From Alphaproteobacteria bacterium (GTDB lineage Bacteria; Pseudomonadota; Alphaproteobacteria; MPNO01): DNA of 64,000 nt. Positions 15,825 to 55,774 of this stretch are shown one piece after another. Numbering within the stretch: the first letter of the stretch is position 1; every line of letters begins with the position of its first letter. The notes beneath the pieces are model-generated. The model was not told where the DNA came from. It saw only the letters and a program-made list of their open reading frames with translations, and did not search any database. The position numbers and the translations under genes were made by a program. Where the stretch lies: NCBI GenBank assembly GCA_965242495.1, contig OZ251446.1, forward strand, positions 2,530,160 through 2,594,159, written 5' to 3'.

Positions 15825-16330
15825 CCGCCGGCATTTTTCGCTTGACACGGGGGAGCGTTTGTGTTACGATCCTTCACAGTGGACAGAAGCGACCGGGAGC
15901 CCCGCTGTCGACCGTCGGCGGGGTTTTTCGTCGCCCCCGACATGGATGCGCAGGAGCCCGCTCCCTGCAATCGAAGATTGCATCGGCGACGGCGAACCGA
16001 ACGCGACCTTCCCGCCGGCGCCGGGCCGGACCGGATCGAAGCCGGGCGGTGCGGAATGGACGGCGGGGCGCGGCGGCAGGCGAAATCGGACGCCGAATCC
16101 GCCCTGCTTTTCGCCTGCTTTCGCCCTGCTTCCGACCGGTTTTCACCCTGCTTTTTCCCTGGTTTTTCGTCGTAACCCATTGGTATGCAACGAAATCGTG
16201 AATTTTTCGCCGGCGGAGCGCCCGCCACCCCGCCGCCGCGCCGTCGCCGACGGGGGAGAACGCGCCGGCCCGGGGCGGGGCCGGCGGCCGGATTTCCGGC
16301 AATCGAAGATTGTATTCCATCGTAACGAAA
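15825..16330 (+). repeat. dispersed repeat family, copy A (promoter module + palindrome pair + phased T-tracts)
   Basis: UP-like gcatttttcgc + TTGACA(15842-47)-N17-TACGAT(15865-70). Palindromes TGCAATCGAAGATTGCA at 15966-15982 and 16298-16314. T-tracts at 16108/16119/16130/16141/16153/16163 (11-bp phase). Motif gtaacccattggtatgcaacgaaatcg. Aligns with copies B (18850-19140) and C (44230-44760, minus). Confidence 0.65.
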
Positions 16331-16524
16331 TACCGGGACGGGACGAGGCGCAGCGTCGCGGCCGCCCGTTGGACAATCCGCCGCCGGCCGGGTTAGGCTC
16401 GCCGCCCGGCCGCCGGATCGAGCATCGAGGAGCAGCGCAATTGGACGAACGACCCGACGCGCCCGGCGGGATCGAGGCGTCTCTCGACGCGGCGGGCATC
16501 GGACACAACCGGCCCAAGGAGGTC

Positions 16525-18849: not shown

Positions 18850-19140
18850 GTGTTCTCAATTTGTGCTTGACATTGGGGAGCGTCTGTGCTATGATTCCCC
18901 AAGATCGTAAAGACGCGACCGGCCCGGCCCTCCGGCCGGAAAGCGGGAGGGAAGGAGCCGATCCTGCGCTCGCCCGCCACCGGGAAGCGAATTCGCCCGT
19001 TTCCGGTCGCGTTTTCGTCCTGCTTTTCGCCTGCTTTCGCCCTGCTTTCTGCGCGTTTCCGCCCTGGTTTTTCCCTGGTTTTTCGGAGTAACCCATTGAA
19101 ATACAAAGAAACTGGAAAGTTTTCGCCGGAATCCGCCGAT
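18850..19140 (+). repeat. dispersed repeat family, copy B (promoter + phased T-tract block; lacks the palindromes)
   Basis: TTGACA(18867-72)-N17-TATGAT(18890-95). Spacer ttggggagcgtctgtgc is similar to copies A and C. Tail …ttttcgcctgctttcgccctgctttc…ccctggtttttccctggtttttcggagtaacccattgaaatacaaagaaa. Confidence 0.6.
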
Positions 19141-19244
19141 GGCGGCGCCGCCCTTCCGTCCGTTCGCCCGCCCTTGACCCGCCGCCCGGTCTCGCCGACA
19201 CTGGCCGGCGACCGCAACACCGCCGGGTGAGCCCCGGGCGAGCC

Positions 19245-20441: not shown

Positions 20442-22058
20442 ATGCGCAATCGTCTCTACCGCGCCGACTGCAAGGCGGTCATCGACGACTTGGCGTCGGA
20501 AGGCGTCCGCGCGGATCTGGTCTATCTCGATCCGCCCTTCAACTCCAACCGCACCTACTCGATGCTGTTCCGACAAAACGGCGTGACGGCTCGGCAGAAA
20601 GCCTATCACGATATGTGGGACTTCACGGACAGCACGCGCCAACTCGTTCTCGATTTCCGCGCCGAACTGGAGCGGTGGGAGCTCGCCCAAGAGTTCAAGA
20701 GATTCATTCTGCTATGGGTAAACATGTTGGAGCAAAGCTCGTCGGACGAAAAGAAGCTGCTCAATTACCTCATGTACATGACGCAGCGCTTGGTGCTGCT
20801 CAAAAAGATCTTGAAGCCGACGGGTTCCATCTACATGCATTGCGATCCGACGGTAAGCCACTACGTCAAGGTGATTATGGACGGGATATTCGGGTTCGGG
20901 AACTTCCGCAACGAGGTCGTGTGGAAGCGAATGTCGTCCCACAACGACGCCAAGCGGTGGGGCAAGGTGCACGACGTCTTGCTGTTCTACTCGATGTCGG
21001 ATCGCTTTACCTGGACCGGCGAGGCGCGCGTTTCTTACGACGACGCCTATATCGCCAAGAGCTATCGGCACAAGGATGAGCATGGGCGCTATATGACCTC
21101 CCCGCTCCAGGCGCGAAGCTTGTCCGGCGGCGGCTACGAGTACGAATGGCGAGGCCGACCGGACATCTGGAAGTTTCCCAAACATCGACTCGACGAACTG
21201 GATGCGAACGGCGAAATCCATTGGCCTCGAAAGCCCGGCGGCGTCCCCCGTCGAAAAGTCTACCTTGACGAGGCAAGAGGCGCGCCGGTGCAGGACGTTA
21301 TCACCGACATCGTGCGGAAGCGGGAGTCCACGGACTACCCGACGAAGAAGCCGAACGACCTGCTCGGACGGGTCATCCGGTCGTCTACCCGCGAGGGCGA
21401 TATCGTTCTCGATCCGTTTTGCGGTTGCGGCACCGCGATAGAGGCGGCGCGCCGTCTGAAGCGGCGCTGGATCGGAATAGACATAAGCGGTCCCGCCATA
21501 GACGAGATAGAAATCCGCCTCGGCCGGCATGGGCTACATCCGAAGACGCATTACGACCTTCTGGAAGGCAGCCCCGAGACGATGGCCGAGTACGACCGGC
21601 TCTCCGCCTACGAGAAGCAGGACTGGCTGATTCGGCGCATGCATGGCTTGCCGAACCCGAGAAAGTCGGGAGACCGCGGCGTGGATGGCGATATGGATAT
21701 TCACCTTGGCGTCGACGAGAACGGGCGCGACCGGTGGGGGCGCGTCGTCTTCTCGGTGAAAACCGGCAAACAACGCAAGCCCGAGCATGTCCGCGAACTG
21801 ATCGGCGTCATGAAGAGCGAAAAGGCGGATATCGGCGTCCTGATCCTGGACGTCGAACCGACGGAGAAGATGGAAGACGCGGCGCGAGCCGTGAAAACCC
21901 TTCGATACCAGCAGCGGGCCGACCTGCCGCCGAAGGAATACGATCGGGTTCAGATACTCACCGCCTACGAGATCATCGAGGGGGCGAAGATAGATTGTCC
22001 ACCCACGATGCAAATCGTGAAACGGTTCCGGGAAGCGCAGATGGAGATGAAGGTATGA
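20442..22058 (+). CDS. beta-class N6A/N4C DNA methyltransferase fused to a C-terminal Mrr-like PD-(D/E)xK nuclease domain
   Basis: Motif IV DLVYLDPPFNSNRTY (res ~25) precedes motif I VLDPFCGCGTAIEAARRLKRRWIGID (res ~315), the beta-class order. C-terminal ~170 aa contains GDRGVDGDMDIHLG…VVFSVKTGKQ, resembling the Mrr_cat D..GxDG…QxK core. GC clearly lower than flanks. 19 nt after the M20 stop. Confidence 0.75.
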   Translation: MRNRLYRADCKAVIDDLASEGVRADLVYLDPPFNSNRTYSMLFRQNGVTARQKAYHDMWDFTDSTRQLVLDFRAELERWELAQEFKRFILLWVNMLEQSSSDEKKLLNYLMYMTQRLVLLKKILKPTGSIYMHCDPTVSHYVKVIMDGIFGFGNFRNEVVWKRMSSHNDAKRWGKVHDVLLFYSMSDRFTWTGEARVSYDDAYIAKSYRHKDEHGRYMTSPLQARSLSGGGYEYEWRGRPDIWKFPKHRLDELDANGEIHWPRKPGGVPRRKVYLDEARGAPVQDVITDIVRKRESTDYPTKKPNDLLGRVIRSSTREGDIVLDPFCGCGTAIEAARRLKRRWIGIDISGPAIDEIEIRLGRHGLHPKTHYDLLEGSPETMAEYDRLSAYEKQDWLIRRMHGLPNPRKSGDRGVDGDMDIHLGVDENGRDRWGRVVFSVKTGKQRKPEHVRELIGVMKSEKADIGVLILDVEPTEKMEDAARAVKTLRYQQRADLPPKEYDRVQILTAYEIIEGAKIDCPPTMQIVKRFREAQMEMKV

Positions 22059-39831: not shown

Positions 39832-40273
39832 ATCCCGGCAAGTGCGACGGCTGCAAGGCGCTCGAGCGCCCCGCCTGCATGTATATCTGCCCGATGGACC
39901 TGATGGCCCTCGATGCGGCGACGGGCAAATCCTACAACCAGGAGCCCGACCTGTGCTGGGAGTGCTATTCCTGCGTCAAGATGTGCCCGCACTCGGCGAT
40001 CCAGATGCGCGGCTACGCCGACGTGGTGCCGATGGGGGCCACGCTGAACCCGCTGCGCGGCTCCGAGTCCATCATCTGGACGGCCAAGTATCGCGACGGA
40101 CGGGTCAAGCGGTTCAAGCTGCCGCTGCGCTCGACGCCCTGGGGATCGATCGACCCGTTCCCGGCCGAGGCGCGGCCGCGCGCGAACGATCTCGGCTCGC
40201 CCGCCCTGTTCGGCGAGGACAAGTATCTGGGCGTGGACCGGCTGCCCGCCCCCGCCCCGACGGGCGCCGCCTG
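39816..40273 (+). CDS. aprB: adenylylsulfate reductase beta subunit
   Basis: TTG start after GAGGGAG. (M)PTFVNPGKCDGCKALERPACMYICPMDLMALD…NQEPDLCWECYSCVKMCP… (two [4Fe-4S] Cys clusters), strongly AprB-like. Confidence 0.85.
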
Positions 40274-40338
40274 ACCGCCGGTCGCGGCGGCCCCCGCTCC
40301 GGAGCCGAAACCGAAACCCGCCCGGCCAGGGGAGACGC

Positions 40339-42213
40339 ATGACCCGCTTCGAAACCGAGGTCGTGGAGTGCGACGTCCTCATCGTCGGCGGCGGCATGTC
40401 GGGCTGCGGCGCCGCCTACGAGGCCGCCTATTGGGCGAAGGAGAACGGGCTGCGCGCCGTCGTGGCGGAAAAGGCGGCGATGGAGCGGAGCGGGGCGGTC
40501 GCGATGGGGCTGTCGGCGATCAACTGCTACATGGGCATGAAGTGGGGAGAGAACCAACCCGAGGACTTCGTGCGCTACGTGCGCAACGACCTGATGGGGC
40601 TGTCGCGCGAGGATCTGGTCTACGACATCGCCCGCCACGTCGATGCGTCGGTCCACATGTTCGAGGAATGGGGCCTGCCCTTCTTCAAGACGCCCGAGGG
40701 CCGCTACGTCCGCGAAGGCCGCTGGCAGGTCATGATCCACGGCGAGTCCTACAAGCCGATCGTCGCCGAGGCGGCCAAGAAGGCCATCGGCCTCGACAAC
40801 GTCTATCAGCGCGTCTTCGTCTGCCACCTGCTCAAGGACCGGCGCGACCCGGCGCGCGTCGCCGGCGCGGTCGGCTTCAGCGTGCGCGACGCCAAGATCT
40901 ACGTCTTCAAGGCGCGGGCCGTGGTCTGCGCCTGCGGCGGGGCGACCAACGTCTGGCGGCCGCATGCGGTGGGCGAGGGGCTGGGGCGGATCTGGTACTC
41001 GGTGTTCAACACCGGCTCGGTCTACAAGCTGATGATCCGGGCCGGGGCCGAGATGAGCCAGATGGAGCACCGGCTGGTCCAGACCCGGTTCAAGGACGGC
41101 TACGGCCCGGTCGGCATGTGGTTCCTGCTGTTCAAGTCGGTGGTGAAGAACGCCTACGGCGAACGCTACGACCAGACGCTCGACGACGAGCTCAAGAACT
41201 GGGCACCCTACGGCCTCGCCCATCCGGTGCCGACGCCGCTGCGCAACCACCAGATGCTGCTCGATGCGTTCAACGGCCGCGGACCCCACTACATGCGGAC
41301 CGACGAAGCCCTCCAGGCCTTGTACGAAGGCCAGACGCCGGAGCGCATCCGCGAGATCGAGAGCGAGGCGTGGGAGGACTTCCTGGACATGACCATGTCC
41401 CAGGCGCTGCTGTGGGCCGCCCACGGCATCGACCCCGCCGAGAAGCCCTCGGAGGTCGTCGTCACCGAACCCTATCTGATGGGCTCGCACGCCTCGGCCT
41501 GCGGCGCTTGGGTGAGCGGCCCGCAGGACGTCTCGCCCGGCGAATACCATTGGGGCTACAACCGGATGACGACCGTGCCGGGCCTGTTCGCGGCCGGCGA
41601 CGGCGTGAGCGGGTCGGCGCATAAATTCTCGTCCGGGTCCTATACCGAAGGGCGGCTCGCGGCCAAGGCGGCCGTCGCCTACGCCGTCGACATGGCGGCC
41701 GCGCCCGAACTCGACGACGACGAGATCGAGGCGGTCAAGGCGGCCATCCGGCGGCCGTTCGAGACGTTCCGGGCGCGCGGCGGCAGCCCCTCCGACCCGA
41801 TCGAGGCGGTCGACGTGGGCTACCTGCCGCCGAAGCTGGGCCTCCGCCGGCTGCAGAAGATCATGGACGAATACGCCGCGGGGCCGGGGGCGCATTACCG
41901 CACCAACGAGCCGACCCTGAAGCGCGGGCTCGAGCGGCTCGCCGAGTTGAAGCGGGAGATGGCGGATCTCGGCGCGCGCAACCTCCACGACCTGCTGCGC
42001 TGCTGGGAGTTGTGGGACCGGGTGATCTGCGCCGAATGCCACATCCACCACGTGCTCTACCGCCAGGAGACGCGCTGGGCGGGGTATCTGTACCGGTCGG
42101 ACTACCCCCGCCTCGACGACGAGAACTGGAAGCTGTTCGTCAACTCCCGCTACGACGCCGAACGGGACGAGTGGCGCATGTCGAAGAAGCCGTTCATCCC
42201 GGTGTGCGACTGA
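40339..42213 (+). CDS. aprA: adenylylsulfate reductase alpha subunit (FAD flavoprotein)
   Basis: MTRFETEVVECDVLIVGGGMSGCGAAYEA…LVRTDLMGL-type block RNDLMGLSREDLVYDIARHVDASVHMFEEWGLP… 624 aa. Confidence 0.9.
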   Translation: MTRFETEVVECDVLIVGGGMSGCGAAYEAAYWAKENGLRAVVAEKAAMERSGAVAMGLSAINCYMGMKWGENQPEDFVRYVRNDLMGLSREDLVYDIARHVDASVHMFEEWGLPFFKTPEGRYVREGRWQVMIHGESYKPIVAEAAKKAIGLDNVYQRVFVCHLLKDRRDPARVAGAVGFSVRDAKIYVFKARAVVCACGGATNVWRPHAVGEGLGRIWYSVFNTGSVYKLMIRAGAEMSQMEHRLVQTRFKDGYGPVGMWFLLFKSVVKNAYGERYDQTLDDELKNWAPYGLAHPVPTPLRNHQMLLDAFNGRGPHYMRTDEALQALYEGQTPERIREIESEAWEDFLDMTMSQALLWAAHGIDPAEKPSEVVVTEPYLMGSHASACGAWVSGPQDVSPGEYHWGYNRMTTVPGLFAAGDGVSGSAHKFSSGSYTEGRLAAKAAVAYAVDMAAAPELDDDEIEAVKAAIRRPFETFRARGGSPSDPIEAVDVGYLPPKLGLRRLQKIMDEYAAGPGAHYRTNEPTLKRGLERLAELKREMADLGARNLHDLLRCWELWDRVICAECHIHHVLYRQETRWAGYLYRSDYPRLDDENWKLFVNSRYDAERDEWRMSKKPFIPVCD

Positions 42214-42231
42214 CCGGGCCGGGAGCGCGCG

Positions 42232-44130
42232 GTGGACCGCCCCCCGATCGAGACGGTGGACTGCGACGTCCTGATCGCGGGCGGCGGCATGGCCGGCTGC
42301 GGCGCCGCCTGGGAGGCCGCCCGCGCGGCCGGGGGCGAGGGCCTCCGCGTCGTCCTCGCCGACAAGGCGACGATCGACCATGGCGGCCCGGTCGGCATGG
42401 GGGTCGCCACGATCGACTGCTTCGTCGGCACCGGGGCCGGCGGGAACGCGCCGGAGGACTTCGTCCGCCACGTCCGCCGGGAGATGATGGGCCTGTGCCG
42501 CGAGGACCTGGTCTACGACGTGGCGCGCCGGGTGGACGACTCCGTGCGGCTGTTCGAGGGCTGGGGGCTGCCGATCCCCAGGAGCGCGGATGGCGGCTAC
42601 GTCCGCAAGGGAAGCTGGCGGATCGAAGCGGACGGGCGGGACTGCAAGCGGATCGTCGCCGAAGCCGCGCGCGAGGCGGTCGGCGCGGGCAACGTCTTCG
42701 AGCGGGTGTTCGTCTCCCATCTTCTGACCGACCGGCGGAACCCCGGCCGCATCGCCGGCGCGGTCGGCTTCCGCACGGACGAGCCCGGGCTTCTCGTCTT
42801 CCGGGCGCGCGCCGTGGTCTGCGCCTCGGGCGGGGCGACGGGCGTCTGGCGGCCGCATCGGCTGCGGGAGGGAGTCGGCCGCTTCTGGGCCGGAGCCTTC
42901 AACAGCGGTTCGGCCTACCGGCTGATGATCGCGGCCGGGGCCGAGATGAGCCAGATGGAGCACCGCATCGTGCTGCCGCGCTTCAAGGACGGCTACGGCC
43001 CGGTCGGCATGTGGCCGCTGGTCCCGGAGGCGGCGATCGAGAACGCCGCCGGGGAGGACGTCGAACGCAAGCGCCGCGCGGCGACGCATGGCCGGACTCC
43101 CCGCGCGGACGAAGCGGACCAAGACGCAGCCCCGGTCACGCTGCGCAACTTCCGGTTCATGCAGGACATTTCCGCCGGCCACGGGCCGTTCCGACTCGCG
43201 CTCGACGCCGCCTATCGCCGCCTCTACCGGAACCAGCCCGACGCGCTGATCGAGTATGCGCGGGCCGAGGGCCTCGCCGAATACATCGACGGCATGACGC
43301 TGCCCCAGGCGGTCGCCTGGGCGCAAAGCGGGGCCGGGGAAACGGCGGCGGAGGCGGAAGCCGAAGCCGAGGTCTATCTCGGCGAGCCGTTCCTGGCCGG
43401 TTCGCACGCCTCGGGCTGCGGCGCCTGGGTGAGCGGCCCGGACGATCTGGCGCCGGCGGAATGGCGCTGGGGTCCCAACCGGATGACCACGGTCGAGGGC
43501 CTGTTCGCGGCCGGCGACGGGGTGGGCGGGGCGGCGCATAAATTCTCCTCCGGCTCCCATGCGGAGGGGCGGATCGCGGGGCGGTCGGCGGCGGCCTACG
43601 CCGCACAGGCGGGCGAACGGGCCGAGCCCGACGCCGGCCGGGTCGAAGCGATCGCGGGCGAGATTCAACGGCCGTTCGAGACCTTCGAGGCCGGGCGGGG
43701 CGCCTCGTCGCGCGACGACGTGAACCCGCACTATCTGCTGCCGGGGATGGGGCTTCTCCGCCTGCAGAAGATCATGGACGAGTATTGCGGCGGCCCCAAC
43801 GCCCATTTCCGCGTCAACCGGCCGACGCTCGAACGCGGACTCGAACTGTTCGCCATGCTGACCGAGGACCTCGACCGGCTCGCCGCGCGCGACCTCCGCG
43901 AGCTGCTGCGCTGCCAGGAGCTGCGCGACCGCGCGCTCACCGCCGAATGCCACCTGCGCCACGTGCTCTATCGCGAGGAGACCCGCTGGCCGGGCGATCT
44001 GTTCCGCCCCGACCACCCGGCGACCGACGACGAGAACTGGAAGGTCTTCGTCAACTCGCGCTACGACGCCGCGACCGGCGGCTGGCGTTTCTCGAAGAAG
44101 CCGGTGAAGGACGTCGTCGGGCCGGGCTAG
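42232..44130 (+). CDS. second, diverged AprA paralogue
   Basis: MDRPPIETVDCDVLIAGGGMAGCGAAWEA…REMMGLCREDLVYDVARRVDDSVRLFEGWGLP… Collinear with aprA but carries an insertion (…EDVERKRRAATHGRTPRADEADQDAAPVTLRNF…). Confidence 0.75.
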   Translation: MDRPPIETVDCDVLIAGGGMAGCGAAWEAARAAGGEGLRVVLADKATIDHGGPVGMGVATIDCFVGTGAGGNAPEDFVRHVRREMMGLCREDLVYDVARRVDDSVRLFEGWGLPIPRSADGGYVRKGSWRIEADGRDCKRIVAEAAREAVGAGNVFERVFVSHLLTDRRNPGRIAGAVGFRTDEPGLLVFRARAVVCASGGATGVWRPHRLREGVGRFWAGAFNSGSAYRLMIAAGAEMSQMEHRIVLPRFKDGYGPVGMWPLVPEAAIENAAGEDVERKRRAATHGRTPRADEADQDAAPVTLRNFRFMQDISAGHGPFRLALDAAYRRLYRNQPDALIEYARAEGLAEYIDGMTLPQAVAWAQSGAGETAAEAEAEAEVYLGEPFLAGSHASGCGAWVSGPDDLAPAEWRWGPNRMTTVEGLFAAGDGVGGAAHKFSSGSHAEGRIAGRSAAAYAAQAGERAEPDAGRVEAIAGEIQRPFETFEAGRGASSRDDVNPHYLLPGMGLLRLQKIMDEYCGGPNAHFRVNRPTLERGLELFAMLTEDLDRLAARDLRELLRCQELRDRALTAECHLRHVLYREETRWPGDLFRPDHPATDDENWKVFVNSRYDAATGGWRFSKKPVKDVVGPG

Positions 44131-44229: not shown

Positions 44230-44760
44230 GAGCGGCGGTCTTCGCCGGCGAAAAATACAATCTTCGATTGCAGAAAATCCGCGCCGGTAATACGCGCCGG
44301 ACCGCCGCGCTCCGCCATGCCGGACGGGGATCGGCCGACGGCGCGGCGGCGCAGAGGACGTCCGCGGCGACGAAAAAATTCCGATTTCGTTGTATTTCAA
44401 TGGGTTACGACGAAAAAACAGGGAAAAAGCAAGGCGAAAACCGGCCAAAACCAAGCCCAAAGCAGGTGAAAACAGGGCGAATCGGCGCCCAGAAACCGCG
44501 CGCCGGCGGGCGGGGCCGTCCGCCCCGCGCCGCCCCACCCGAGCGCAAGCCGGCGCCGCGCCAAAGCCGCGCGCAGCCGATGCGCTATCGCGGATGCAAT
44601 CTTCGATTGCAGGCGATCGGACCATGGGAATCTCCGGTTCGGGCGACGAAGAACCCCGCGGGCGGGCCGCCGCGGGGGTCCGGATCGATTCTGTCGACGA
44701 TGGAGGATCGTAACACATCCGCTTCCCCATGTCAAGCGGAAAATTCCCTCGTCCATTCGC
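44230..44760 (-). repeat. dispersed repeat family, copy C (minus strand; full-length like copy A)
   Basis: Minus-strand UP-like aattttccgc + TTGACA (44730-35) -N17- TACGAT (44707-12). Palindromes at 44595-44611 and 44256-44272. Phased T-tract block and gtaacccattgaaatacaacgaaatcg. No gene lies downstream on the minus strand (it faces the 3' end of aprA'). Confidence 0.65.
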
Positions 44761-47837: not shown

Positions 47838-48152
47838 TCAACGCTGCTTGATTGTGTGCTTGATCTTCAGGGATCGCGGAGATTCGCGGACTTCCGTGAT
47901 AAGCACATCGAAAACATACCCACCAATGAGAGTGGAAGCAGCGCCAATAAACTGTTCACCATCGTAAGCCCGAATGGTGATTCCTCCCTCTTCGCAAGTG
48001 GTAGTTCCGTTGATGAATAGCGAACCGAAGATGTTGTAACTCCACCGCCAATCCTCGATTTGACAGTCGGCGCGCGCCGGGGCCGCCCATGTCGCCAGCA
48101 TCAACGCAACCATGGCCAAAGCGAATGTCGGAACGGCGCGAATGGCGAGCAT
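47838..48152 (-). CDS. small secreted hypothetical protein (low-GC insert)
   Basis: ATG 48152 6 nt after GAGGAGG. Signal peptide MLAIRAVPTFALAMVALMLATWAAPARA. GC ~45% vs ~70% background. Two Cys. Confidence 0.45.
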   Translation of the reverse strand: MLAIRAVPTFALAMVALMLATWAAPARADCQIEDWRWSYNIFGSLFINGTTTCEEGGITIRAYDGEQFIGAASTLIGGYVFDVLITEVRESPRSLKIKHTIKQR

Positions 48153-48544
48153 GGAAGCCTCCTCGGTATCGGATCGGGCCGATCCTATAGCCAAAGGGAC
48201 GCGCGCCCGCGACGGCCCGTTTTGCCGGACGCGACGGCATGGCTCACTACCGAGCGCGTCGACAAGCAGCCTCGCCGCTTTCTGCTAGGTGAGCCCCCGG
48301 CGACGCGGCCCGGCCGGGTTGGCCTCCCGACCGGCTTTGCAATGCTTGCTCCACGCGCAAATACGCCACACTTGCGCGCCCGGCGCAATCGAGGCTGGCG
48401 ACGCCGGCGCGCGGCCCCTCGCCATCACTCGCACCATCCTTCCTGCCAGCCGCCGCCGTATGGACGACCAAGCCCGGCTAGGATCAACGCAGGCGCAAGC
48501 GAACGGCCGTCAATGTCCACGTCCGCGACCACACGGCCGCCATA

Positions 48545-48590
48545 CCAGCCCCATCGCGGACGATGGCGGAAATTTCCCTATGTCAAGCGG
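48545..48590 (-). promoter_or_regulatory. fragmentary copy (D) of the repeat-family promoter module
   Basis: Minus-strand cgcggaaattttccgcTTGACAtagggaaatttccgcc. Shares the UP element (aattttccgc, identical to copy C) and -35 hexamer, but has no good -10. Points toward the low-GC secreted-protein gene ~390 nt downstream. Confidence 0.35.
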
Positions 48591-48667
48591 AAAATTTCCG
48601 CGCGGGCGTTGAGACCGGACCGCAAGTCGGGCTATACTGATTCCGGTCAGCGGCAACGGAGGTCGGC

Positions 48668-53323: not shown

Positions 53324-54202
53324 CTACCCCGCCGCGGGGTGGACCAGACGCCGCACGACGTCGTCGAGCTGGTCGGGCGTCGTATAGTGGATGATCAGCG
53401 CGCCGCCGCGTTTGTGCGTGCGCAGGCTGACCCGCAGGCCGAGAGATCCCGATAGCTCGCGGTCGATCGCGGTCTCGCCGACGGGCCGGCCCGTTTCGGC
53501 GCCTGCGCCGCCGCCCGGGAGAGCGCGCCGGACCAGCCGTTCGGTCTGGCGCACGCTGAGCCCGCGCGCCGCCACCGTCCGCGCCAGCGGGCCGGGCTCG
53601 GCGGCGGCGAGCAGCGCCCGCGCATGTCCCGCGCTCAGCCGGCCGTCGACGAGCATCGACGTCACCTCTTCGGGCAGGTTGAGCAGGCGCAGCATGTTGG
53701 CCACGTGGCTGCGGCTTCGGCCGACCAGCCGCGCGACGTCCTCCTGGCGATGGCCGAAGTCGTCGATCAACCCGCGATAGCCCTGGGCCTCCTCGACCGG
53801 GTTGAGGTCCTGGCGCTGGACGTTCTCGACGATCGCGATCTCGAGCGCGGCCCGGTCCGGGACCTCCCTGACCAGGACGGGCACTTCATGCAGCCGCGCC
53901 CGCTGCGCGGCGCGCCAGCGGCGTTCCCCGGCGACGATCTCGTAGCCGTCGGCCCGGTCGGGGTCGCGCCGCACCAGGATGGGTTGGAGGAGGCCCTGGG
54001 CGCGGATCGACTCGCTGAGCGAATCGATCCGCGCCTCGTCGAAATCGCGCCGCGGCTGTAGTCGGTTGGGACGCAGCAGGTCGATGCCGACCGTCTTCGA
54101 CGACCCGCCTTCGCCGGTCGGGTCGTCCGCCGCGCGGTCTTCGCCGAGCAACGCCGTCAGGCCGCGTCCCAGCGGCCGGTCGCGTCCCGGTCCGGCGTTC
54201 AT
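53324..54202 (-). CDS. parB: chromosome partitioning protein ParB
   Basis: …LQPRRDFDE…GLLQPILVR…YEIVAGERRWRAA… ParB box motifs. Confidence 0.9.
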   Translation of the reverse strand: MNAGPGRDRPLGRGLTALLGEDRAADDPTGEGGSSKTVGIDLLRPNRLQPRRDFDEARIDSLSESIRAQGLLQPILVRRDPDRADGYEIVAGERRWRAAQRARLHEVPVLVREVPDRAALEIAIVENVQRQDLNPVEEAQGYRGLIDDFGHRQEDVARLVGRSRSHVANMLRLLNLPEEVTSMLVDGRLSAGHARALLAAAEPGPLARTVAARGLSVRQTERLVRRALPGGGAGAETGRPVGETAIDRELSGSLGLRVSLRTHKRGGALIIHYTTPDQLDDVVRRLVHPAAG

Positions 54203-55023
54203 GCCCGGCCTCCTTCCTCCCGCCGCAGCATCTCGCCGGCGAGGCGCATATAGGCGCGGGCGCCGGTGCAGCGGACGTCGTAGATCAGAACCGGCTTGCC
54301 GTGGGACGGCGCCTCCGAGACCCGCACGTTGCGCGGGATGACGGTCTCGAACACCATGTCGCCGAAATAGCCGCGCACGTCTTCGGCGACGAGCGCGCTC
54401 AGCCGGTTGCGGGAATCGTACATGGTGAGCAGGATGCCCTGGATCGCCAGGCGTTCGTTGTGGGTCCGCCGGACGCGCTCAATCGTGCGCACCAGCTGGC
54501 TCAGCCCTTCGAGGGCGAGGAACTCGCATTGCAGCGGCACCAGCACCTTGTCGGCGGCGGCGAGGGCGTTGAGCGTCAACAGGCCGAGGGCGGGCGGACA
54601 GTCGATCAGCACGTAGTCGCGGCCCGAGGCCAGGCCGCCGATGGCGTCGCGCAGGCGATAGGCCCGGCGCGGCCGGTCGACGAGCTCGATTTCGGCGCCC
54701 GACAGGTCGAGCGTCGACGGCGCGACGGCGAGCCCCGGGATCCCGGTATCGACCGCCACCCGGTCCGCCGGCGCGCCGTCGAGCAGCATTTCGTAGACGC
54801 CCCGGGTCCGCCGCGCGCGTTCGATGCCGAGGCCGGTGGACGCATTGCCCTGCGGATCGATGTCGAGCAGCAGGACCTTGCGCCCGACCGCGGCCAGCGC
54901 GGTGGCGAGGTTGATCGCGGTGGTGGTCTTGCCGACCCCGCCCTTCTGGTTGGCGACCGCGACGATCCGGCAACCGCCGTCCGGCGGCGCGCCGTCGGCC
55001 CGCGGCGCGTCCCCTTCGCTCAT
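54199..55023 (-). CDS. parA: chromosome partitioning ATPase ParA
   Basis: Deviant Walker A KGGVGKTT, 4-nt overlap with parB. Confidence 0.9.
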   Translation of the reverse strand: MSEGDAPRADGAPPDGGCRIVAVANQKGGVGKTTTAINLATALAAVGRKVLLLDIDPQGNASTGLGIERARRTRGVYEMLLDGAPADRVAVDTGIPGLAVAPSTLDLSGAEIELVDRPRRAYRLRDAIGGLASGRDYVLIDCPPALGLLTLNALAAADKVLVPLQCEFLALEGLSQLVRTIERVRRTHNERLAIQGILLTMYDSRNRLSALVAEDVRGYFGDMVFETVIPRNVRVSEAPSHGKPVLIYDVRCTGARAYMRLAGEMLRREEGGRA

Positions 55024-55030
55024 GACGCCT

Positions 55031-55771
55031 TCACCGTTGTTTCACGTGAAACGCTCGACCGGCTGGCTCTCCGATCTCTCCGGTCTCGCCGGGCGCCCGC
55101 CGGGCGACGCGCTCCAGCCGCAGGATGCGAGCCGCCGGCTCGGTCGCGCTGGGGCGGATTTCGACGCGCATACGCCACAGCCGGCGCGCGGCCGTCAATT
55201 CCTCCCGCCAGGCGGCGCCCTTCGGGAACAGGCAGCAGGACGCGGCGAGGGCGACCGGCCGCAGGAAGGGCCGCGCATAGTCGAGCAGCCGGGGGAGCGG
55301 GGCGAGGGCGCGGGCGGTCACGACGTCGCTGGGCCAGGCGTCGAGGCGCTCGATCCGTTCGGCGTAGACCCGCGCCGGCGCGCCGGTCAGCCGAATGCAC
55401 TCCTCCAGGAAGGCCGCCTTCCTGGAATCGGCCTCGACGAGGCGGGTCTCGACGCCCGCGATTACGGCGAGCACCAGCCCCGGAAACCCGGCGCCGCTGC
55501 CGAGATCGGTCAGCCGCGCCGCGCCGGGCGGCAGATGGGCGGCGAGCTGCGCCGAATCGAGCATGTGGCGGCGCCACAGATCGTCGAGGCTGCGCCGGCT
55601 CGCCAGATTGACCCGCGGTCGCCAGCGGAGGAGGCAATCGGCGTAGGCGACCAGCCGGTCCAGCGTTTCACGTGAAACACCGGCCGCGCGGCGGAAACGC
55701 CGGGCGTCGAGCGGCGCGCCGGCGGAGTCGGAGACCGGGTGGATTGCGGCCGCCTGGGGCGGGGCGTTCAA
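55031..55771 (-). CDS. rsmG: 16S rRNA (guanine527-N7)-methyltransferase
   Basis: …VSRETLDRL…, …DLGSGAGFPGLVLA… SAM motif. Contains parS-1 and parS-2 at its ends. Confidence 0.85.
   Translation of the reverse strand: MNAPPQAAAIHPVSDSAGAPLDARRFRRAAGVSRETLDRLVAYADCLLRWRPRVNLASRRSLDDLWRRHMLDSAQLAAHLPPGAARLTDLGSGAGFPGLVLAVIAGVETRLVEADSRKAAFLEECIRLTGAPARVYAERIERLDAWPSDVVTARALAPLPRLLDYARPFLRPVALAASCCLFPKGAAWREELTAARRLWRMRVEIRPSATEPAARILRLERVARRAPGETGEIGEPAGRAFHVKQR
55038..55053. promoter_or_regulatory. parS site 1 (TGTTTCACGTGAAACG)
   Basis: 15/16 match to the parS consensus tGTTtCACGTGAAACa. At the rsmG 3' end/parA start. Confidence 0.75.
55663..55678. promoter_or_regulatory. parS site 2 (CGTTTCACGTGAAACA)
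   Basis: 15/16 match. Inside the rsmG 5' end (encodes VSRET). Confidence 0.75.
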
Positions 55772-55774
55772 GGC

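Follow-up and report, generated by a model that had tools for sequence, protein, structure and literature searches.

Dispersed, non-coding intergenic repeats with regulatory motifs are an already known kind of bacterial DNA. The BIME (RIB-RIP) elements of E. coli are about 100 bp long and consist of GC-rich REP hairpins in inverted pairs with no promoter, and those called BOX in Streptococcus pneumoniae have a modular build in which the number of internal repeat units varies, and no promoter-terminator unit. According to PMC2229807, the Correia/NEMIS elements of Neisseria are 107-155 bp long with 24-bp terminal inverted repeats and a TA target duplication, and the CIR repeats of Caulobacter and Brucella (Chen and Shapiro 2003) are two-armed units of ~110 bp that are conserved across alphaproteobacteria and expose a GANTC methylation site in a hairpin loop. 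Putative mobile promoters were defined as sequences of at least 50 nt with at least 80% identity located within -150 to -50 of a start codon, and duplication by recombination was listed as a route of their spread (Matus-Garcia et al. 2012, PMC3488235). Here we describe a repeat found as three copies (A, B and C) and a fragment (D) in a 64-kb stretch of DNA (the window) from a 71% G+C alphaproteobacterium. The family is previously undescribed, is known from a few related bacteria and belongs to no named family. Taken as a whole, the reading that we favour with moderate confidence is that A, B, C and D belong to one modular repeat of ~0.5 kb that is non-coding and restricted to one lineage, and in which a portable transcription unit is joined to an architectural DNA module, and that it spread by duplication or recombination and decays by deletion. 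An original prediction for this DNA had proposed a dispersed promoter-bearing repeat; features that go beyond it are the terminator, both palindromes, an array of phased T-tracts with its IHF-type core, and the nature of copy B as a deletion derivative without terminator.

Homology of the copies, promoter module and predicted transcript

Copy A (15833..16338, plus strand) and copy C (44231..44745, minus strand) represent the long form of the repeat. In an nhmmer search with a profile built from five long copies (A, C and those of the related loci L011, L012 and L013), copy A matched profile positions 2-515 with an E value of 1.6e-140, and copy C was collinear with the layout of copy A. The two copies showed 73% identity over ~500 bp (508 nt in blastn, E 1.5e-69), which bore out the earlier claim of common descent as opposed to convergence. 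Copy B (18858..19166, plus strand) is a short form. It shares with the long copies a 39-nt promoter block and a 114-130 nt T-tract/core block at 78-82%, and in the profile search it also matched element positions 192-419. Since profile positions 59-191 and the 3' end were absent, B is a long copy that lost these segments; terminator, palindrome 1 and palindrome 2 are all missing from it. Fragment D (48558..48599, minus strand) had been proposed as a remnant of the same family, and 26 of 29 bases at 48574-48599 of the minus strand indeed match copy C. It is a degenerate 5' stub that comprises the A/T run, the -35, the first spacer bases and then CCATCGTC, the -10 having been deleted.

The composite promoter pattern TTGACANNGGGRAGCGNNTGTGNTAYGAT had three exact matches in the window, at 15842 (plus strand), 18867 (plus strand) and 44735 (minus strand), compared with 0.00 in shuffled sequences, and a consensus scan found in each of A, B and C the TTGACA-N17-TA(C/T)GAT originally described; the spacers are related to one another, and each -10 is extended by a TGn. 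On both strands of the window just four sigma-70 sites with at least 10 of 12 consensus matches (A2 and T6 required) were detected against a shuffle mean of 0.1, and three of these were the sites of copies A, B and C. The promoter of copy A (15833..15870, plus strand) begins with an A/T run, ATTTTTCGC, at 15833-15841, followed by the -35 TTGACA (15842-15847), a 17-nt spacer ending in TGn and the -10 TACGAT (15865-15870). The promoters of copies B and C are located at 18867-18895, with the -10 TATGAT, and at 44735-44707, respectively. The A/T run beside the -35 is 6-9 bp long (AATTTTTCGC), so that the proposed UP element is UP-like but falls short of a consensus UP element. The fourth strong sigma-70-like site of the window, TTGAGA-N18-TATACT at 48609-48638 (plus strand), lies back to back with fragment D, upstream of a DUF3576 gene and leuS.

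That copies A and B lie upstream of co-oriented genes would suit ordinary gene promoters, alike by convergence or by co-duplication of a gene with its upstream region. This explanation is refuted: homology over 500 bp at E 1e-69 cannot be convergence, the flanking genes are unrelated to one another, and copy C and the L013 copy have no downstream gene. The M20 gene downstream of copy B has a conserved promoter-like site of its own, TTGACC-N17-GACACT (19174..19202, plus strand), which lies outside the repeat and is kept in the related loci L008, L009 and L010. In L008 (85% M20 identity) the element is absent and a divergent acyl-CoA dehydrogenase gene precedes M20; the M20 gene keeps the promoter-like CCTTGAC-N17-GAC(A/G)AT that is also found downstream of copy B. 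We conclude that the element was added and does not represent the native promoter. Together with the convergent gene that copy C faces, this upheld the earlier assignment of the promoter to the dispersed repeat.

About 30 nt past the -10 of copy A we found an 8-bp GC hairpin followed by TTTTT (arms 15900-15907 and 15916-15923, U-run 15924-15928, plus strand, fold energy -24.3 kcal/mol); in copy C the hairpin with its U-run occupies 44677-44649. Across the five long copies all 40 of the 40 stem cells were paired, and in two of the pairs both partners had changed (C:G to U:A, U:G to G:C). This pairing was equalled in just 9 of 500 shuffles, and slid registers paired at 40-62%. The hairpin with the U-run is the anatomy of an intrinsic terminator, with a predicted RNA of ~50 nt. 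RNA polymerase with sigma-70 would start ~7 nt after the -10 and, in the long form, would meet the intrinsic terminator 45-55 nt downstream, so that most transcripts would end as a ~50-nt RNA consisting of a ~22-nt tail, the 8-bp GC hairpin and a U-tail (in copy A 15877..15931, plus strand, counted from the putative start site). The short form has no terminator, and its promoter should therefore read through the T-rich leader into the next gene; such copies (B and that of L014) would act as portable promoters.

The promoter-terminator unit could alternatively belong to a family of trans-acting Hfq-type small RNAs with a 3' hairpin and U-tail, in which the downstream 400 bp would be regulatory or hitch-hiking. 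The long forms do pair a strong promoter with a covarying terminator at a constant distance, and a short motif, CA..TCGACA, is kept at the transcript start. An own promoter together with an intrinsic terminator was present in silico in the long forms only; the short forms lost the terminator and retained the promoter with the T-tract/core block. The remainder of the ~22-nt 5' tail differs strongly between copies, leaving no conserved single-stranded seed, and the blocks with the highest conservation are found outside the RNA. The stretch best conserved between copy C and L011, GGGTTYTTCGTCGCC...GGAGATTCCCATG, is situated between the terminator and palindrome 1 (GGAGATTCCCATG at 44635-44623, minus strand, in copy C). 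In the Rfam scan that had been suggested as a check, only the neighbouring tRNA-Val passed the gathering score of any covariance model, and the repeat had no credible match up to E = 10. We therefore regard a small RNA family as rather unlikely. From the small RNA candidate as first put forward, the promoter and the covarying hairpin terminator of the long forms stand; the RNA is predicted to be only ~50 nt long, with a variable tail. A large structured RNA has no support from folding energies, as folding of the whole element on either strand was no better than that of shuffles (z-scores of -0.86, +0.07 and -0.49). The pairing that RNAalifold proposed between a G-rich segment and the CU-rich array consisted mostly of G-U pairs and showed little covariation.

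Long open reading frames cross the repeat on both strands and have given rise to public gene calls of 140-250 aa (P0121, P0122 and P0125-P0128). A small protein gene or a type I toxin-antitoxin locus, comparable to the 0.5-kb LDR repeats of E. coli, would have a similar length of ~0.5 kb, a strong promoter for a short RNA and reading frames on both strands; in addition, ATG GGT TAC can be read on the core's reverse strand, and four of the five long copies have GGAG-N6-ATG after the terminator. Coding on either strand was nevertheless rejected, and this explanation with it. The reverse-strand ATG of the core is lost in L011 (ATA) and in L010 (AGG), and substitutions are spread evenly over the codon positions (10/11/9 between L012 and L013, 17/19/21 between copy C and L011). 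L011 has a stop seven codons past the forward ATG, a 44-bp indel between copy B and its L009 ortholog breaks the frame, a Pfam search with the reading frames of the repeat gave no matches, and no conserved small hydrophobic reading frame was found. On this evidence the public calls are spurious proteins across repeat copies, and recognising the repeat would remove them from annotation.

T-run array, core and palindromes

The segment downstream of the predicted transcript has the following layout. Palindrome 1 is followed by a G-rich variable segment, an array of T-runs and a core, and a second variable segment leads to palindrome 2 and a boundary block, CGAAA.ACC. In copy A, palindrome 1 (TGCAATC-GAA-GATTGCA) is located at 15966..15982, the array of ~six T-runs, phased by ~11 bp and preceded by a GANTC, at 16095..16169 (plus strand), and the core, GTAACCCATTGGTATGCAACGAAA, at 16172..16195; palindrome 2, GCAATCGAAGATTGTATT (16299-16316), and the 3' boundary block CGTAACGAAATACC together occupy 16299..16338. 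The corresponding positions on the minus strand in copy C are 44611-44595 for palindrome 1, ~44497-44411 for the T-runs, 44408-44385 for the core and 44271-44254 for palindrome 2. Copy B has eight phased T-runs at ~18994-19086, its core at 19088-19111 and a 3' block specific to the short form, CGGAATCCGCCGATGGCGGCGCC, at 19127-19149. The shared sequence had been thought to end at the gtaacccattg motif of the core. This was not the case, as the similarity between A and C continues for ~140 bp to palindrome 2 and the 3' boundary.

The array consists of six to eight T-runs whose centres occupy constant positions in 9 copies (-86.5, -74, -62, -51.5, -40.5, -30, -17.5 and -6.5 from the core). Neighbouring centres are 11.3 +/- 0.9 bp apart, and one more T-run is found 39-40.5 bp past the array. 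When the amplitude of the AA/TT helical period was calculated along the window, the three elements ranked at the top with values of 16.8-20.1, compared with 10.6 for the next best site and a median of 2.9. A role of the array as a Rho-binding 'C>G bubble' is not supported, since it was absent from the windows with the top C/G ratios. The hairpin loop just 5' of the T-runs carries GANTC, a CcrM-type methylation motif, in six of eight copies, with A, T or C as the N (16095-16099 in A, ~44481 on the minus strand in C, and L009, L011, L012 and L013); B has GAATTC in its place, and short forms contain another GAATC within CGGAATCCGCCGATGG, 3' of the core.

The core pattern GTAACCCATTG occurred exactly three times in the window, against 0.15 expected. 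Its consensus is GTAACCCATTGRWATRCAAMGAAA, and the opposite strand reads TTTCAATGGGTTA or TACCAATGGGTTA (the latter on the minus strand of copy A, 16173-16185), one mismatch from the IHF consensus WATCAANNNNTTR. The window contains four sites within one mismatch of WATCAANNNNTTR, and three of them are the cores of A, B and C, where a flanking A/T tract accompanies the match. Substitutions in the core among copies fall on N or R positions of the IHF consensus (in NNNN, or with R kept). Alternative-sigma promoters (sigma-54, sigma-32 and extracytoplasmic function sigma factors) were sought in the core by eye, with no acceptable match.

The palindrome pattern had four matches in the window compared with 0.30 expected. 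Palindromes 1 and 2 are in direct orientation, with 335 bp from one to the other, and L012 and L013 have a degenerate palindrome 1. The core resembles a degenerate third copy. Variation is confined to the 3-bp centre (GAA, TAA or GGA), and the arms are either fixed or decayed without compensation, which fits a double-stranded site of a dimeric protein better than a selected hairpin; TGCAATCGAAGATTGCA is the proposed protein-binding sequence. We also noted complementarity of GAAATACAA, a segment of the core, with TTGTATTTC, which comprises the 3' half of palindrome 2 and its flank (16177-16185 with 16309-16317 in copy A). The same holds in C, L011, L012 and L013, the partner is missing in the short forms, and copy A shows one compensatory difference, GGTATGCAA with TTGTATTCC. 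This complementarity could reflect RNA pairing or a DNA inverted repeat.

In our preferred reading of a transcription unit joined to an architectural module, the DNA downstream of the promoter would be intrinsically curved and would be bent further by IHF. The bend would bring the palindromes together, with the degenerate third site at the bend, for a dimeric or tetrameric protein.

Neighbouring genes, distribution and proposed mode of spread

The gene contexts of A, B and C were as first described. Copy A is located between tRNA-Val on its 5' side and a cupin operon on its 3' side, copy B between an LVIVD gene and the M20 gene, and copy C after a thiolase gene, facing a convergent aprA'-like gene. 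The 5' neighbour, where known, is always co-oriented with the element (tRNA-Val, LVIVD, thiolase, PIN or another copy of the element), and the 3' neighbour is either co-oriented (the cupin operon, M20, AlbA_2) or convergent (the aprA'-like gene, a PEP-utilising enzyme gene). Neighbours are often accessory or defence genes, and the promoter is found 350-600 bp upstream of a gene or has no downstream gene.

Exact-pattern scans of 185,579 representative genomes and of JGI metagenomes, neither of which apparently includes the source genome, returned chance matches only, mostly in coding DNA. No matches were obtained with blastn or tblastn against plasmid and phage collections, and a literature search on the motif sequences found nothing relevant. 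In viral sequences the core patterns gave 0 and 1 match, the promoter pattern 8 and the palindrome 2 pattern 53. About 43 of these 53 code for 'EKYRPxTIEDCIL', presumably part of a clamp-loader/RFC-type gene, on viral contigs of low GC content. The others are scattered, and none of the 53 is related to the repeat. A metagenome contig, L004, contains CTGCTTTTTCGCTGTAACCCATTG at 180-330, in a ~100-nt leader that runs from a promoter-like TTGCCA-N17-TATAAT to a tRNA gene (tRNA-Asp, anticodon GTC by eye); this match is likely due to chance (expected ~0.2-1).

Relatives of the repeat were instead recovered from protein databases through the spurious reverse-strand calls that cross it. The further copies are carried by related metagenome contigs from Rhodospirillales that resemble Defluviicoccus, where toxin-antitoxin and Schlafen genes are their neighbours. 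Among named organisms, Defluviicoccus (Rhodospirillales) has the closest relative of the M20 gene, and P0122 is encoded in a 3.94-Mb NCBI genome. L011 carries a long copy in the same place as C, with a PIN/DUF7662 pair upstream in place of the thiolase operon. L012, near higBA, has one long copy that is preceded at ~230 bp by the 3' end of another, and L013 has a long copy facing the convergent PEP-utilising enzyme gene. A short form with the layout of B is found in L014, ~75 nt upstream of a Schlafen/AlbA_2 gene. L009 and L010 (97-98% M20 identity) contain orthologs of B, and the L009 copy lacks exactly 44 bp, that is, four T-run units. Around the elements of L012 (~860-1000 and ~1600-1720) and L013 (~1400-1500) there are several occurrences of a separate short REP-like repeat, which contains the hairpin GTCATTCCCGCGAAAGCGGGAATCC.

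Copies at the same location diverge quickly. C and L011 are 77% identical (77-79%), compared with 90.8% at third codon positions of the neighbouring genes, and B and its L009 ortholog are 88.9% identical, compared with 95-96%; relative to the third codon positions of genes next to them, the elements thus diverge ~2.5 times faster. We propose that the unit would be copied into intergenic DNA beside accessory genes through duplication or recombination, not by classical cut-and-paste transposition, and would afterwards decay through slippage of units and internal deletions. The variants found range from the L009 copy lacking four units and the internal deletion of B to the stub D.

Since the repeat is multi-copy, intergenic and clustered near accessory genes, we considered a non-autonomous transposable element, either a MITE (a miniature inverted-repeat transposable element) derived from an insertion sequence (IS) or an element of the IS200/IS605/REP type moved as single-stranded DNA by an HUH transposase via palindrome hairpins. 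The two near-identical palindromes in direct orientation, with central loops that fit a stable G-N-A DNA triloop (GAA or GGA), would suit the latter, and an IHF-type site is also known from Correia elements (PMC2229807). The ends of the five aligned long copies, AATTTTTCGCTTGACA and GATTGTATT-N8-CGAAAAACC, speak against it. As terminal inverted repeat they share just a 7-mer, TTTTTCG/CGAAAAA, that is found again within the element, and no boundary direct repeat or target duplication was detected at the flanks of A, C, L011, L012 and L013. Conservation reaches ~130 bp 5' of palindrome 1, compensatory changes are absent from the stems of the palindromes, and the ends do not lie just outside two maintained subterminal hairpins as in IS200/IS605-type (PATE/REP) elements. 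There is no transposase nearby in the window, and an IS1595 in L008 is unrelated. The repeat is non-coding and multi-copy like a MITE but measures 310-510 bp, above the usual limit of ~300 bp. The earlier MITE-like label was therefore dropped for this ~0.5-kb unit, which has neither terminal inverted repeats nor target-site duplication, and we consider a transposable element of either type quite improbable.

Very improbable, in our view, is a site for site-specific recombination or cassette capture (attP- or integron-like) in which the T-runs would be arm-type sites and the core the IHF site. The idea draws on a synteny break exactly at the 5' edge of C, where the thiolase operon of the window is replaced by the PIN/DUF7662 pair of L011, both loci then continuing into the same aprA'-like gene (94% identity). 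Copies A and B moreover bracket a three-gene block beside tRNA-Val, and toxin-antitoxin, methylase-nuclease and Schlafen genes are among the neighbours. The 3' end of the tRNA is not duplicated, which also makes an island integrated at tRNA-Val unlikely; no integrase is encoded in the window, and in the five-copy alignment, read by eye, no conserved RYYYAAC/GTTRRRY pair was seen at the element ends. The element has the wrong size for an integron attC (57-141 bp, GTTRRRY), and a lone GTTAGGC at 16392 lies downstream of copy A only. The 3-bp spacer of the palindromes is too short for a tyrosine-recombinase core, and fast neutral drift, as for B and L009, would fit the identity of 77-79% that C shows with L011.

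Several points weigh against the portable transcription unit with its architectural module. Promoter activity and RNA ends are deduced from sequence, and a conserved trans-acting seed is made less likely by the poor conservation of the 5' tail in the predicted RNA. The core is a putative IHF site by the E. coli consensus. A palindrome-binding regulator was sought among the nearby genes and none was found; the cupins beside copy A look like dioxygenase halves, hence enzymatic, and have no helix-turn-helix domain. The fast divergence implies that much of the repeat is weakly constrained, or may even be unconstrained, with conservation concentrated in the modules. About a dozen copies are known, counted in the window and the related contigs and not in the whole source genome. 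No terminal inverted repeats, target duplications or pairs of empty and filled sites with exact junctions were found.

A bolder proposal would be that the repeat is more than a selfish carrier of a promoter, namely a dedicated IHF-bent, protein-looped device of the chromosome with a constitutive micro-transcription unit, which marks, and perhaps catalyses, the exchange of blocks of accessory or defence genes in the origin-proximal region. Such a device would be either a platform of a new kind for recombination or capture, or a new element that moves as single-stranded DNA by way of its G-N-A-loop hairpins. We regard this combination as a long shot. If the link with exchanged accessory genes were true, it could point to an unrecognised recombination hot-spot mechanism.

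The window comprises the origin-proximal mnmE-mnmG-rsmG-parA region with parS-like sites. Two 33-nt arms (55034-55066 and 55651-55683) that are 94% complementary, each with a parS-type palindrome, TGTTTCACGTGAAAC, flank rsmG/gidB (55031-55774, minus strand), near parA (54199-55041, minus strand), mnmG and mnmE, and these arms and neighbours identify the window as the origin-proximal partition region of the chromosome. Two aprA-like genes form tandem paralogs (FAD_binding_2/Succ_DH_flav_C; 40048-42213 and 42214-44130) with ~72-79% nucleotide identity over most of their length. Between M20 and a gamma-glutamyltranspeptidase gene, an N6/N4 DNA methyltransferase is fused to an Mrr_cat/NA-iREase1 nuclease-like domain (20442-22058); this gene is an insertion, since in L008, the 85% relative, the transpeptidase gene directly follows M20. 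On the 3' side of fragment D, a short stretch (47839-48160, minus strand) whose G+C content looks lower by eye holds a candidate small open reading frame with an ATG start after GAGGAGG. Its N-terminus resembles a signal peptide (MLAIRAVPTFALAMVALMLATWAAPARA...), and it may encode an acquired small secreted protein.

Comparison with known repeat families

Dispersed promoter-bearing repeats are one way in which bacteria rewire or switch on newly acquired genes, and the window shows several stages of such a repeat: a self-terminated long form that should be insulated, a terminator-less short form before a gene, and a dead stub, D. The family joins features that are usually separate, namely a near-consensus promoter, a covarying terminator, phased T-tracts, an IHF-type site and operator-like palindromes, and it provides a compact natural test bed for DNA bending and looping on a strong promoter in a genome of high G+C content.

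Among the known families, BIMEs resemble the repeat in that palindromic units flank an IHF-type site and lie at the 3' ends of transcription units; here, however, the palindromes are A/T-rich, 335 bp apart and in direct orientation, and a promoter is present. With BOX elements the repeat shares modularity and a variable number of internal units (here four to eight T-run units), but no likeness of sequence or architecture beyond that. CIR repeats (PMC2229807) are likewise alphaproteobacterial intergenic repeats without terminal inverted repeats, and the GANTC in a hairpin loop is another point of comparison; going by their description, they differ in size and in distribution, exact patterns having recovered no copy of our repeat from the 185,579 representative genomes. 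The likeness to mobile promoters (PMC3488235) lies in homologous promoter-bearing non-coding DNA beside non-homologous genes, since A and B share 114 nt at 82% and have tRNA-Val and cupin versus LVIVD and M20 genes as neighbours. The shared T-tract/core block is positioned at -341 to -228 (A) and -229 to -116 (B) from the start codon, outside the -150 to -50 interval, and no gene follows copy C. The unit is also modular and of far greater size. Correia/NEMIS elements (PMC2229807) are also dispersed, non-coding and intergenic, with an internal IHF site, putative promoters and long and short variants that differ by an internal segment. The repeat described here differs from them in its length of 310-510 bp, in having neither terminal inverted repeats nor a target duplication, and in adding a promoter-terminator microgene, a phased T-run array and two 17-bp palindromes.

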